The notes under the pieces were generated by a model. The model did no database searches and was not told where the DNA came from. It worked only from the letters and a program-made list of their open reading frames with translations. A DNA stretch of 17,200 nucleotides from Octopus sinensis (taxonomy: Eukaryota): the NCBI RefSeq assembly GCF_006345805.1, contig NW_021824612.1, forward strand, positions 1-17,200, written 5' to 3'. Made by a program: the position numbers and the translations under genes. Below are positions 230 to 8,054 of the stretch, in pieces (positions within the stretch are counted from its first letter, which is position 1; every line of letters begins with the position of its first letter).

Positions 230-332
230 TGTCTGAAATAAAAAAAATATGGCTAGAACTAAACAAACTGCTCGAAAATCTACTGGAGCAAAAGTTCCAA
301 GGAAACAATTGTCTGCAAAATCTGCTCGCAAG
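230..332 (+). other. Captured histone H3 5'UTR + codons 1-28 (tail through K27)
   Basis: Near-identical to the reverse complement of ~11920-12021 (H3 gene). Identity stops right after ...gctcgcaag. Upstream 1-229 does not match the H3 promoter. Confidence 0.95.
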
Positions 333-2061
333 CTGTCTGCACTAAGAAGACTATGCAGAAGTGGAGGCGTTCCCGCTTCGCACTCCCCGGAGGACAAGAC
401 GGTTCAGTGTGCCACTACGATGAACTGCCGGAGCCGTGGTTCACCGCCACGTGCTTCCGGCTATTCTAGTGGTGTTTTTAATTCTTTAGGTCAAAGCAGG
501 AGGTCGAAGCCTGGACCCTCCCAGATGGGTTCAGCACTCACTGAAGACTCTTCTCCCTCTGCTCCCCCTTTGGCTGGTGTCGGGGGAGCAGCAGCTGCAA
601 CAGGTACTAATTGTTTGGTAGCCACGACAACCGCACAGCATGCTGGTTCGCCACGTGTTTGCGGTTTGTCTAGTGGTGCCAAACCCAGCCAACTTAAGTC
701 ATTTAATGCTAACAGGGTGTCGTCTCCTGGCCCGCTCCGGTGGGTCCGGCAGGAAATAAGGTTCCCCCGAGGACGGTTGGCACACGGTGGGGAAGCCGAA
801 ACGTGTTGTGGCCGTCCAACCCCTAATGTTTTAGGTACTGGGTGTGCGTCCGCTCAGGTGGATGCACACCCAAAGAAGACCACTGGCGCGGGGGGTAGAA
901 TTACCTTGGTGCTGTGGCACGACTTGAGGTCCTCCCTACAAGTGGGAAGGCCTCGGTCGTAAAGATCTTAGGTACGTTAGACTCTATCCAGCCTTCAAAG
1001 CTGTATAGAGTCCTGAAGAGGGAGCCCACCCAATTCCTGCTTGGGTGGGGAGAAGGAGGAGGACTTCTTCAGCTTTAAAGGAGAGCTGGAGAAGTCCAGC
1101 CCGTTCGGTCCTGGCATGCATCGGCTTGTCAGGATTGAACAAAAGGTAAGGCAGGTAAGAGTCCTGCTCCTCGGGGTCCCCCGGGACTTCGAGGATAATG
1201 ACCTTTTAGGACACATACAGCGGGAGTAACCCAGTGCCTCTGCCCTTGCACGCTTCAAGCAGGGTAACCGCCCTCTTGAAGTGGTGGAGGTCATCCTGGG
1301 ATCTCCTGCGGAAGCCGAGCGCCTAGTACTTCTGGGTACTAGGATCGGCTACATTAGGATGAGAGCTGCCTGGCCCCGCCCGAAAGCCACCCAATGCTTT
1401 CGGTGTCAGGGGTTCGGGCACATCTCCACAAAGTGCCCAGATAAGGCGAAGTGCCTTATTTGCGGTGGGGAGCATGGTCGCAAGACGTGCCCCTCACCAT
1501 CCAAGGAGAGGCAGTGTGTCAACTGTGGTAAGTTGGGACACACTGCCAACTTCAGAGGTTGCCCCAAGTTCAAGGAGGCAACCCGAAAGGTAGGTGGGGA
1601 TGTAATCCCAACAGTAAGTCGCCCGCGTCGCGTCGCGCGCCCTGCGCCAAAACCTGGCAAGCAGGCGATACTGGCCAAACCTTCCAAATCCGTTTGGGTG
1701 GCGAAGACAGTGGAACTGTGAGCCATGCTACGTGTGGGTCGGTGCAGCCTTCGTCGACAAAGTTGGCAAAGCAGGTGAAAGCTTCCGAGTCCGCTTGGTT
1801 GCCTAAGCCGGCAATGCCTTCTGAGGCGGCTACGGCGGCGCCGTCCGGCACAACCTGGGGCTGAAAAGGCGTCCTCCATACGTGGAGATGCCATTGCACT
1901 CAGCCCCTGGCGAGCGTGTACCGCAGGACAGTATTAATCCTGCGGTGCAATTATGCGTTTCCCTATTAAAATTTTGTAGGGAGATGAATTGCAGTGTAGA
2001 GGAAATGCTACACTGCAACGTTGCCGAGGCCAAGAAGATCCTTGGCGAAGAACCGATATGA
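249..2061 (+). CDS. Family A ORF1 (gag-like nucleic-acid-binding protein) with N-terminal histone H3 tail + H4 peptide; split by several single-base indels
   Basis: Starts [41 protein letters not shown]. Knuckles CFRCQGFGHISTKC, CLICGGEHGRKTC, CVNCGKLGHTANFRGC (~1395-1562). Ends ...KKILGEEPI* (TGA 2059-2061), read by comparison with copy 2, whose indels fall elsewhere. Confidence 0.8.
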
Positions 2062-6716: not shown

Positions 6717-7999
6717 GCGTAGCACCCCAGTAGGGTCAGGGCTCCTACACAACAGCGGAAGCATTCCAGTTGGGAATCTCTGTTGTGTAGGTCCTGATCC
6801 GAGAGGGGACCTCTTTGTGACAAAGCTTTGTCACGGTGGGTTTTTCTCCTCTTATGAGGGACAGCCGAGCGGACCACTTCTGAGTTATGGCACTCATTAG
6901 TGGTTGTCTTCGAGTTTGTGATTGTGCTGGGGGCCGGCGACGTCTGAGTAGAGACATCGACTTTGGACGGACTTGGAGGAGCCGCTTTTGTCCAGACTGA
7001 TTTCATCGGTTCGGCTTTTACCCAGCGTACTGGGCTTTTTGTCTGTGGGCTCTTCGCAACCCTTGAGGCTGCTGTTGCTGCTTTGGCAGACGGACATCCA
7101 CCGTAGCAAGCCAAGTGCCCAGTGTTCTTGCAGTTAATGCAAGTTTTTGCAGCTGGGACACTCGGTTTCGGCTTGAAACCCGGGCAGTTTTGGTGCCTGT
7201 GTTCTTTACCGCAGAGGAGACAACGGAGTTTTTCGGAGCATCTGTAGGACGTATGTCCGAACTGATTGCAACGGAAGCATCTCGTTGCTGACGGCTTGTG
7301 CCATTCGCAGCGGATATGGCTGAAGCCCGCAGTTATTCCAAAGTCCGATTCTAGACTTTCTCTCAAGTGGAGGTTAAGATCCTCTGTCGAGATCCAATGA
7401 GGGATTCCTTTAAGGACCAAGACTGAGGCCTTCTCAGCTACTGAGGCAAGTTTATGGCCGCCTTCGCCAAACATATTCGATTGAGACAGCTCTGCTTTGA
7501 AAGCAGCAGCATCCTCGGGCGAACTGAATTTTAGAATGAAGGTGCCGGACTTCTGTAAAGTTATCCGGGCTTTCGAAGCAGTTGGAGACTTGGATAAAAG
7601 GTTAAACCTCTTGATCTTTCCAAGTGCCGAGTTTTCGATACTCAGAGAATATGTGAGGTTTGAGCTGTTAGGCTCAGTTGTCGTCTGATGGCATTGGGTC
7701 TCAATGTGTTTTTGAGTCACAGCAGGGTTCGGATGTTCGGTGGGATATTCATCTTTTATGGGTTCGCAAAAGGGCTGTGGCTTTGCCGCTGTTCGTCTTT
7801 GAACATGGGAGCAAGCTTTGATTGATGAGAGATTTTGTTTATTCTTTGACATCCCAAGTTGATTATGTACTGTCTTTAAAATTTTCATAAGATATATGGA
7901 AAAAGTTTTCCTTTTCTTTTTTTTCTTTGTAGCAACAGAAACATTTTTGTTTTTTATAGGAGCTCTTTTTTGTCCCTTTGTGCTAACTTTAGGTGCCAT
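6650..7999 (-). CDS. H2B(1-52)-ORF1 in-frame fusion protein (last ~20 codons run into antisense element B)
   Basis: Uninterrupted frame from the H2B ATG (7999): MAPKVSTK...[16 protein letters not shown]...CFRCNQFGHTSYRC...CLLCGKEHRHQNC...CINCKNTGHLACYGGC. About 31-aa in-frame deletion relative to B. Confidence 0.75.
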   Translation of the reverse strand: MAPKVSTKGQKRAPIKNKNVSVATKKKKKRKTFSIYLMKILKTVHNQLGMSKNKQNLSSIKACSHVQRRTAAKPQPFCEPIKDEYPTEHPNPAVTQKHIETQCHQTTTEPNSSNLTYSLSIENSALGKIKRFNLLSKSPTASKARITLQKSGTFILKFSSPEDAAAFKAELSQSNMFGEGGHKLASVAEKASVLVLKGIPHWISTEDLNLHLRESLESDFGITAGFSHIRCEWHKPSATRCFRCNQFGHTSYRCSEKLRCLLCGKEHRHQNCPGFKPKPSVPAAKTCINCKNTGHLACYGGCPSAKAATAASRVAKSPQTKSPVRWVKAEPMKSVWTKAAPPSPSKVDVSTQTSPAPSTITNSKTTTNECHNSEVVRSAVPHKRRKTHRDKALSQRGPLSDQDLHNRDSQLECFRCCVGALTLLGCYAKVVPAEWGAVVPGFRGADTDV

Positions 8000-8054
8000 T
8001 ATCCACAAAATTTGCAAGTTCTGAAGGGAAAAAATCTCATATAATAAAAAAGTA
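6713..8054 (-). mobile_element. Element C: relative of B whose ORF1 is fused behind H2B 5' flank and 52 H2B codons; 3'-truncated
   Basis: Shares ALGKIKRFNLLSKSPTASKARITLQ and three knuckles with B. 7842-8054 matches H2B 15150-15362. Confidence 0.85.

Follow-up and report, generated by a model that had tools for sequence, protein, structure and literature searches.

Non-LTR retrotransposons with in-frame histone heads and 3′ ends at histone gene starts in contigs co-assembled with the Octopus sinensis genome

Non-LTR retrotransposons that carry histone N-terminal codons at the front of ORF1, and many of whose 3′ ends lie at histone gene starts, occur on contigs assembled with the Octopus sinensis genome. 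The stretch analysed here (the window, 17,200 nt) is the whole of one of these, C1083, a small, unplaced contig of a 2.7-Gb assembly, and it holds one histone unit (H3, H2A, H4, and H2B) together with pieces of three such elements, A, B, and C. The explanation we favour, at a probability of roughly two in three, is capture of a promoter and an ATG at histone starts by APE-type non-LTR elements. The heads are explained by 3′ ends at histone starts combined with very long target duplications, both of which a sequence-only reading of the window had missed. The contigs are co-assembled parasite DNA, not octopus. The features of the window are as follows.

227–4781, + strand: element A, full length, H3-headed subfamily, with head, ORF1, ORF2, 3′ UTR, and tail
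249–2061, + strand: ORF1 of element A
2058–4660, + strand: ORF2 of element A (APE and RT)
249–332, + strand: H3 codons 1–28 (free N-terminus, K4 to K27), start of A ORF1
339–372, + strand: inner H4-derived peptide of A (H4 nt 97–130, ALRRLCRSGGV)
4762–4781, + strand: tail of A (TATA-like box with T and C runs), identical in sequence to the core promoter of type-2 H2B
4782–4792, + strand: H3 transcription-start region, 11–12 nt, separating the A tail from element B
4822–6725, + strand: element B, 3′-truncated, with mosaic head, ORF1 with three CCHC knuckles, and the beginning of the endonuclease
4822 to about 4942, + strand: head of B, with ATG at 4822, H3 part at 4880–4912, and H4 part to about 4942
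6723–7842, − strand: body of element C, ORF1 of an ORF1-only 1.47-kb element, with an internal deletion, tail to tail with B
7842–8054, − strand: H2B core promoter, 5′ UTR, and codons 1–52, with the in-frame join to C; single-copy, candidate newly made head
8066–11527, − strand: second copy of A, both ends truncated, adjoining the H3 gene on its downstream side
11591–16029, mixed strands: parasite histone gene unit
12002–11591, − strand: H3
12859–12532, − strand: partial H2B
13920–13569, − strand: H2A
14085–14393, + strand: H4
15205–15570, + strand: H2B
16171–16933, − strand: third A piece, with H3 head, 3′-truncated
16935–17200, + strand: A RT fragment, ending at the contig end

The histone openings of A, B, and C described from the window alone are real, and each join could be located and is in frame. 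ORF1 of A begins at the ATG at 249, preceded by ∼15–20 nt of H3 5′ UTR, and runs through H3 codon 28, ending at K27, into the H4-derived peptide, which recurs in B with the same R-to-S change. Exact copies of the A inner head number 36 genome-wide, 28 H3-linked and eight H2B-linked. In fetched sequence, H3-headed A was present in 29 copies with one joint, on 16 contigs and with differing flanks; 22 are in frame and seven have single-base slips scattered in the head. Upstream of these heads lies a histone promoter in four cases, a tail-like motif in seven, and other DNA in 18, and these 18 copies, with neither histone promoter nor element tail upstream, support the view that the heads travel with the element.

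Other heads occur on the same body. Element A is also headed by H2B(1–25) and, in seven copies, by H4(1–52); the related A2 carries H4(1–50) in two copies, and a single-copy join links H4(1–71) in frame to A ORF2. The H4-headed joints were taken from sequence fetched at known places, and a degenerate pattern for such joints gave no matches. A 176-nt H4 match at C10743 was considered as a duplication belonging to the A copy there and rejected, since the same H4(1–52) joint occurs in seven copies. No error-free full-length ORF1 of H3-headed A was seen among the copies (longest 362 aa); the A body is fully open in an H4-headed copy (513 aa) and nearly open in an H2B-headed one. Both H3 alleles and both H2B alleles are represented, and the heads match present histone alleles; the donor is, as earlier proposed, the lineage's own histones.

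Upstream of the ATG, 26 of the 29 H3 heads match H3 for ≤21 nt (A-runs collapsed), ending inside the 5′ UTR. A match of >21 nt was found in only three, and these sit at real H3 promoters; contrary to the earlier suggestion, histone promoters are not captured. The heads thus appear to stop at the transcription start site, which, like all histone start sites used here, was placed from TATA spacing and head ends.

In B, the H3 part of the head (head nt 59–91) and the H4 part both outscored all of 1000 codon shuffles; the H2B part, whose first 11 nt equal the H2B start, was reached by 161 of 1000, and this test therefore supports two components of the reported H2B/H3/H4 mosaic but not the third. 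The head is present in all nine B copies that reach the 5′ end; it has decayed and diverged, and it retains the RRLCR/RNLCR peptide in doubled form. A and B have the inner H3/H4 layer in common, with ORF2 proteins 32% identical, which implies exchange between families. In C, H2B nt 1–158 are joined in frame to ORF1, but this is one of 20 C 5′ ends examined, and the other 19 begin with MVKEKKEK, a non-histone peptide. A histone head is therefore a family trait of A and B and a single copy in C.

The sequence-only reading had placed all three heads in frame with an ORF1 bearing three CCHC knuckles. One open frame does reach the three knuckles in the window copies of B and C; it does not in window A, which has 19 indels relative to an intact copy. 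Overall there are at least five multi-copy heads (H3, H2B, and H4 on A, H4 on A2, and the H3/H4 mosaic on B), and only N-terminal histone pieces were found as heads. All seven distinct histone-to-ORF joins are in frame, against one in three expected by chance; for independent joins such an outcome has a probability of ∼1 in 2000, but the five multi-copy joins are in frame because an ATG is required. The intermediates preserved in this genome show how a LINE can swap its own 5′ end for host coding sequence.

An A 3′ end was scored as lying at a histone start when histone 5′ UTR or start sequence followed directly, or when the empty site lay 43 nt from the promoter box. By the first rule 22 of 46 ends qualified, and by the second five more, giving 27/46 (19/38 distinct flanks, several counted copies being duplicates of one event); these criteria leave 19/46 away from histone starts. 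Random positions satisfy the first rule in 1.9% of cases when drawn from the same cluster-rich sequence and in 1.5% when drawn from distant loci. Across all families, 47 of 82 ends lie at a histone start or 5′ UTR, including 20/36 from non-A families, whose ends come solely from sequence retrieved near histone clusters. Window A is placed at an H3-type start by the 11–12 nt of H3 start region directly 3′ of its tail, and a further A end (C8901) lies outside the pattern, at a non-histone site.

All four core histones are hit, and the 3′ joints fall within ∼35 nt of the 5-kb unit. A box of the TTCGGAATGAT type is common to all promoters of the window histone unit, and at two orphan H2B-type promoters the insertion lies 43 nt from the promoter box. 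The C12598 promoter belongs to the H2B type, yet its sequence at the cut is different, and B lies antisense at H2B starts; both observations suggest targeting by position and not by sequence. An endonuclease guided to its site by a promoter and not by the sequence it cuts would be valuable to work on targeted gene insertion. C types, lacking a histone head, lie at the same sites; the TTCA-like repeats of their tails correspond to sequence at the H2B start, and a variant of the A tail is identical to the core promoter of type-2 H2B. Intact histone ORFs stand directly behind an element tail in 11 of 36 cases (a fetched, biased sample). An extra G at 3′ joints was considered as a cap signature of template jumping and discarded, as the string matches the type-2 H2B promoter; the flanks beyond these joints run on into genomic spacers.

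Long direct repeats that start at the 3′ joint and end at the 5′ joint (277–1436 bp) were called in assembled sequence at 10 of the 31 A copies with both ends in view. Their lengths are 277, ∼330, 341, 470, 575, ≥910, 1233, ∼1265, and 1436 bp, at 96–100% identity; the 470-bp repeat is found in two tandem copies, probably one event, and the upstream copy of the ∼1265-bp repeat is cut by a contig end. One site (C12600) has duplications of both ∼330 and 575 bp. Two repeats begin at an H2A or H2B start, and the one beginning at H2B ends in an H3 gene exactly where the H3 head of the element is homologous. Homology-guided 5′ joining, raised in the earlier reading, was seen at least once (C8744:158290), and 5′ joints often show microhomology or short local repeats.

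In a further A copy the repeat is 3.2 kb long and includes an inversion, another copy is consistent with a deletion of ∼294 bp, and no long repeat was found in 20/31 copies with 0.2–6 kb of flank in view. Short duplications at A ends were sought and dropped (0/14 full-length copies), the long repeats emerging only over kilobases of flank; around a C copy the H2B start is duplicated over 12 bp. R9 of bdelloid rotifers reportedly makes an exceptionally long target duplication of 126 bp, of fixed length at one rDNA site, whereas the range here is 12 bp to 1.4 kb and varies at one site. Of the steps of target-primed reverse transcription, second-strand joining is understood least, and the variable 0.3–1.4 kb duplications provide a natural record of it.

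The favoured explanation would work as follows. The elements would lack a promoter of their own and be read from the histone promoter and ATG, and their dependence on histone transcription is likely. The endonuclease would nick at a histone start, placed by the promoter more than by the cut sequence, and the nick would prime reverse transcription there. Microhomology or homology to the head may then join the cDNA end to a point that lies downstream, at no fixed distance, or within a different histone gene of the cluster. A join point inside the coding region would set promoter, 5′ UTR, and N-terminal codons before a 5′-truncated element; if in frame, the join would yield a transcribed and translatable ORF1, and the next round would copy the head as part of the element. 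Repeated cycles could stack layers, with H4 inside, then H3, then H2B. The first role of the head would thus be rescue of promoter and start codon, and each head would make its element a new target, giving tandem arrays. We infer the nick, the transcription, and the order of events from the arrangement of the sequences. The window C copy is a candidate newborn head, but it has lost its 3′ end, and no copy showed the complete birth state (promoter, new head, element, and the same gene from its start). Against this scheme, C, also found at histone starts, has a non-histone family head.

We weighed this explanation against others. Heads could arise by template switching of the RT onto broken histone mRNAs, independently of the insertion site. 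That the heads begin at the mRNA 5′ end would agree with this, as would the inner H3/H4 layer shared by A and B, which needs inter-family transfer, and layered heads resemble the host-RNA pieces repeatedly added to the 5′ ends of SINEU and U6/L1 chimeras (PMC4494074). Those heads are non-coding and the elements non-autonomous, whereas here protein-coding heads stand in frame with ORF1 of autonomous elements. Template switching leaves the 3′ ends at histone starts and the long duplications unexplained, single-copy joins lie by a histone promoter (window 8054–7842) or behind the tail of another element, and the pieces are N-terminal only; we consider it improbable. Less probable still is that no active targeting occurs, with open, redundant arrays accumulating elements and unequal crossing-over or gene conversion making the fusions and repeats. 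The arrays are indeed heavily rearranged, with inversions and duplicated units, and several junctions occur in 2–3 identical copies. The narrow placement of the 3′ joints, against a null drawn from the same cluster-rich sequence, speaks against passive accumulation, as do repeats that run from 3′ joint to 5′ joint also at non-histone sites (C10696, C9340, and C8901).

A proposal compatible with promoter and ATG capture is that the histone tails of the ORF1 protein may be selected as functional mimics, binding importins, chaperones, or histone-locus factors, guiding the RNP towards histone promoters, or serving as a decoy for K9/K27 readers. The H3 head offers a free N-terminus from K4 to K27, the five multi-copy heads are all in frame, and the RRLCR/RNLCR peptide persists; the binding of TRE5-A ORF1 to TFIIIB at target tRNA genes is a precedent for ORF1-guided targeting (PMC5911963). 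The need for an ATG alone, however, predicts in-frame heads, H3, H2B, and H4 heads are interchangeable on one body, the C types are found at these sites with no histone head, and the B head has decayed. Selection on the H2B head was considered from its synonymous differences and rejected, as these are alleles of the type-2 H2B paralog and give no sign of peptide selection. We regard mimicry as unlikely. A bolder version, to which we also give a low chance, would make these the first retrotransposons to have histone promoters as both their target and their only promoter, with a histone tail on the ORF1 protein that is functional, is modified and read as a genuine tail would be, and returns the RNP to histone promoters in S phase and a 3′ TATA serving the displaced gene. 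If true, element and histone array would form a self-renewing unit, as HeT-A/TART do at telomeres.

The remaining alternative is an assembly or chimeric-read artefact. C1083 is small, unplaced, and indel-rich and has a 3.5-kb inverted repeat, and the best set of reads possibly comes from the sample used for the assembly itself. The H3/ORF1 joint of A, however, is seen 29 times, in differing flanks and across 16 contigs, and is spanned, over window 303–690, by a short-read contig of depth 86 (possibly from that same sample); an artefact is extremely improbable. The A-tail/H2B-UTR joint is present in a short-read contig of depth 34.6. Window A is corrected by short-read contigs at 12 listed places, and its frameshifts are therefore probably assembly errors. 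In run X5, labelled with another study and species, depth over A is 3–15 with divergent letters and no bridge of the head joint was shown; runs X8 and X11 have little coverage of A. The single-copy C/H2B joint is the least secure of the joints: none of the short-read contigs listed bridges it, and one contig at 7842 continues into H2B.

ORF2 encodes an AP endonuclease followed by an RT (Pfam PF14529/PF03372 and PF00078), with the catalytic motifs NxR, NExK, GDLN, SDH, and YADD in A, A2, and B. It is 870 and 869 aa long, without RNase H or C-terminal knuckle hit or motif, and an intact 870-aa ORF2 is found in another A copy. ORF1, with three CCHC knuckles (alignment A1), starts within ∼9–35 nt of the 5′ end, in histone-derived sequence. 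The 3′ ends are defined, tails are simple (T/C runs or tandem 4–5-mers), 5′ truncation occurs, and LTRs are absent. The C type of the window has an ORF1 of 430/433 aa, then 153–156 nt to the tail, and no ORF2 (2/2 copies checked); C is HAL1-like in its working, not L1-derived.

These elements thus share the APE type, defined ends, three-knuckle ORF1, and ORF2 lacking RNase H with the jockey clade. Jockey elements have an internal Pol II promoter in the 5′ UTR and a poly(A) tail, and by sequence features the present elements show neither. The single fixed target sequence of Tx1/R1 was not found, the targets being four histone types and orphan promoters, in both orientations; nor was the single ORF with a restriction-like endonuclease after the RT of R2/NeSL/Utopia, there being two ORFs and an N-terminal APE. 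In a quick tree of 67/124 RT pieces, a single branch (SH-aLRT 97) unites the RTs of A, A2, B, and C2. Its sister (89) is a long row with RNase H, and the group that contains the few named arthropod jockey-like hits stands beside it; "jockey-like" here denotes architecture and not tested membership, the tree having no curated references. Best database identities are 25–33%, and Atlas matches are all under 0.9. None of the 150 best ORF1 relatives, many of them partial ORFs, matches these histones, a weak indication as regards other organisms; the four nearest belong to the same assembly.

LINEs with known target specificity use rRNA, snRNA, and tRNA genes, microsatellites, telomeres, and other transposons; Pol II starts of histone genes would extend this list by a new class and might open a route to S-phase expression in proliferating cells. 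Insertion of a Tx1 family at H2B genes, and of the LTR element 297 at a Drosophila H3 promoter, has reportedly been described, so that a precedent for histone targeting is possible. In the open-access literature covered here, we found no histone-targeting or histone-headed retrotransposon family. The main texts of PMC4494074, PMC4640811, PMC8869645, and PMC5753468 do not contain the word "histone", PMC11727581 covers histone retrocopies only, and PMC7710466, PMC12953835, and PMC9498864 gave nothing decisive. For the combination of histone targeting, in-frame family heads, and kilobase duplications, no precedent was found in these sources.

R2, R1, Utopia, Keno, and other Tx1 families resemble the present elements in redundant multicopy gene targets and in precise 3′ and variable 5′ joints, and R2 depends on transcription of its target (PMC4494074 and PMC4640811). 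Here, in place of one RNA-gene site, the starts of four types of Pol II protein-coding genes are targeted, specificity is partial (∼60%), and target codons join ORF1. TRE5/NLTR-A elements of Dictyostelium are likewise APE-type and insert at a fixed distance from a promoter via host factors (PMC5911963), but they use Pol III tRNA genes, belong to the L1 clade, lie upstream in the opposite orientation, and capture no target sequence. With HeT-A/TART/TAHRE, the jockey clade, and Hebe the elements share the three-knuckle ORF1, an APE + RT ORF2 of ∼870–900 aa, head-to-tail arrays, an ORF1-only partner, and a promoter-like 3′ end directed at the following unit (PMC5537684 and PMC2861651). They differ in not being telomeric and in having tails of T/C runs or 4–5-nt repeats and not poly(A), and Hebe duplications measure 7–12 bp. 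The A tail is a putative promoter.

The host is probably a dicyemid, judging from a non-octopus 18S gene and short gaps in genes linked to the histone contigs, together with dicyemid biology. A 1667-nt 18S gene, ∼80% like octopus 18S, lies with parasite histone DNA on C1618. HSP90-family genes with GT-AG gaps of ∼21–32 nt lie on contigs also holding parasite histone DNA, among them C9073, which carries the divergent H4 and an HSP90-family gene with gaps of ∼22–31 nt; a search with HSP90 found no close named relative (identity ≤59%). Dicyemids live as parasites in cephalopod renal sacs, and O. sinensis is the species from which Dicyema japonicum was obtained (PMC6736024); dicyemid introns have a median length of 27 bp (PMC6543705). 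A microsporidian host was considered and rejected, the 18S scoring best as a general eukaryotic SSU. The divergent H4 occurs only on small unplaced contigs, all 42 exact A 3′ ends are on small contigs, and H4 genes 81% identical to it are mostly on large scaffolds. The exact H3, H4, and H2A proteins are filed in databases under Octopus sinensis, and many "Octopus sinensis histone-like" entries derive from a parasite.

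On contig C8744 of the Octopus sinensis assembly (G000:C8744:120126-124300), elements of at least five types lie with their 3' ends in a chain. Each of these 3' ends precedes an identical 12-nt H2B start sequence, and the chain reflects repeated insertion at a single site. Elsewhere in the assembly, histone-type promoters were found with an element at the start of each and intact histone genes distant:

G000:C12600:278399, orphan histone-type promoter
G000:C12598:125923, orphan histone-type promoter
G000:C1794:339369, orphan histone-type promoter, its TATA box directly preceding ORF2
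G000:C2292:112022, orphan histone-type promoter

At G000:C10743:6360-8081, an H2B promoter directly precedes a long open frame made up of RLRSIQAQK-like short tandem repeats, and a repeat frame of this kind recurs behind an H2B start at C10696:42775. Non-histone targets are also shared: two A copies (C8750:76573 and C8901:258037) lie in the same non-histone repeat, about 35 bp apart and in opposite orientation, and common targets link contig C12418 with C12814 and C12605 with C8853.

Truncated and inverted elements were seen at these places:

A positions 1723-1740 (window about 2050-2065), break zone at the ORF1/ORF2 boundary
G000:C11576:21849-38294, inverted element pair
G000:C9068:1-700, inverted element pair

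Many A truncations and deletions end at the ORF1/ORF2 boundary (contigs C1794, C8750, C10250, C10696, and C13428), suggesting that a pause site lies there or that some A RNAs contain ORF2 alone. Twin priming or fold-back events may have produced the inverted pairs, whose members either stand head to head and share their flanks or meet tail to tail with an H2B start between them.

Upstream of each of the four histone genes in the window stand one or two copies of a short element, a candidate histone-specific regulatory site of the parasite:

Window 13970-14057, 15085-15157, and 15980-16015, 36-nt element with a TTCGGAATGAT core

At G000:C1618:2300-7767, histone cluster DNA lies ∼3 kb from the parasite 18S gene, and the parasite's histone and rRNA arrays may therefore be linked.

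Contig C1618 is one of the small unplaced parasite-type contigs of the assembly, together with C9073, C8703, C12469, and others. The octopus was co-assembled with a second eukaryotic genome, with a dicyemid as its probable source; the annotation files the genes of this second eukaryote under Octopus sinensis. GRP94-like genes on the second-genome contigs fall into two sets, which suggests two haplotypes or two species. The divergent H2A has close relatives only on the contig encoding proteins P0131/P0123 and in an ant assembly (75% and 72%, respectively). The ant-assembly protein, P0132, is labelled Vollenhovia emeryi and comes from a 2.3-kb contig; these H2A relatives probably represent similar contamination.
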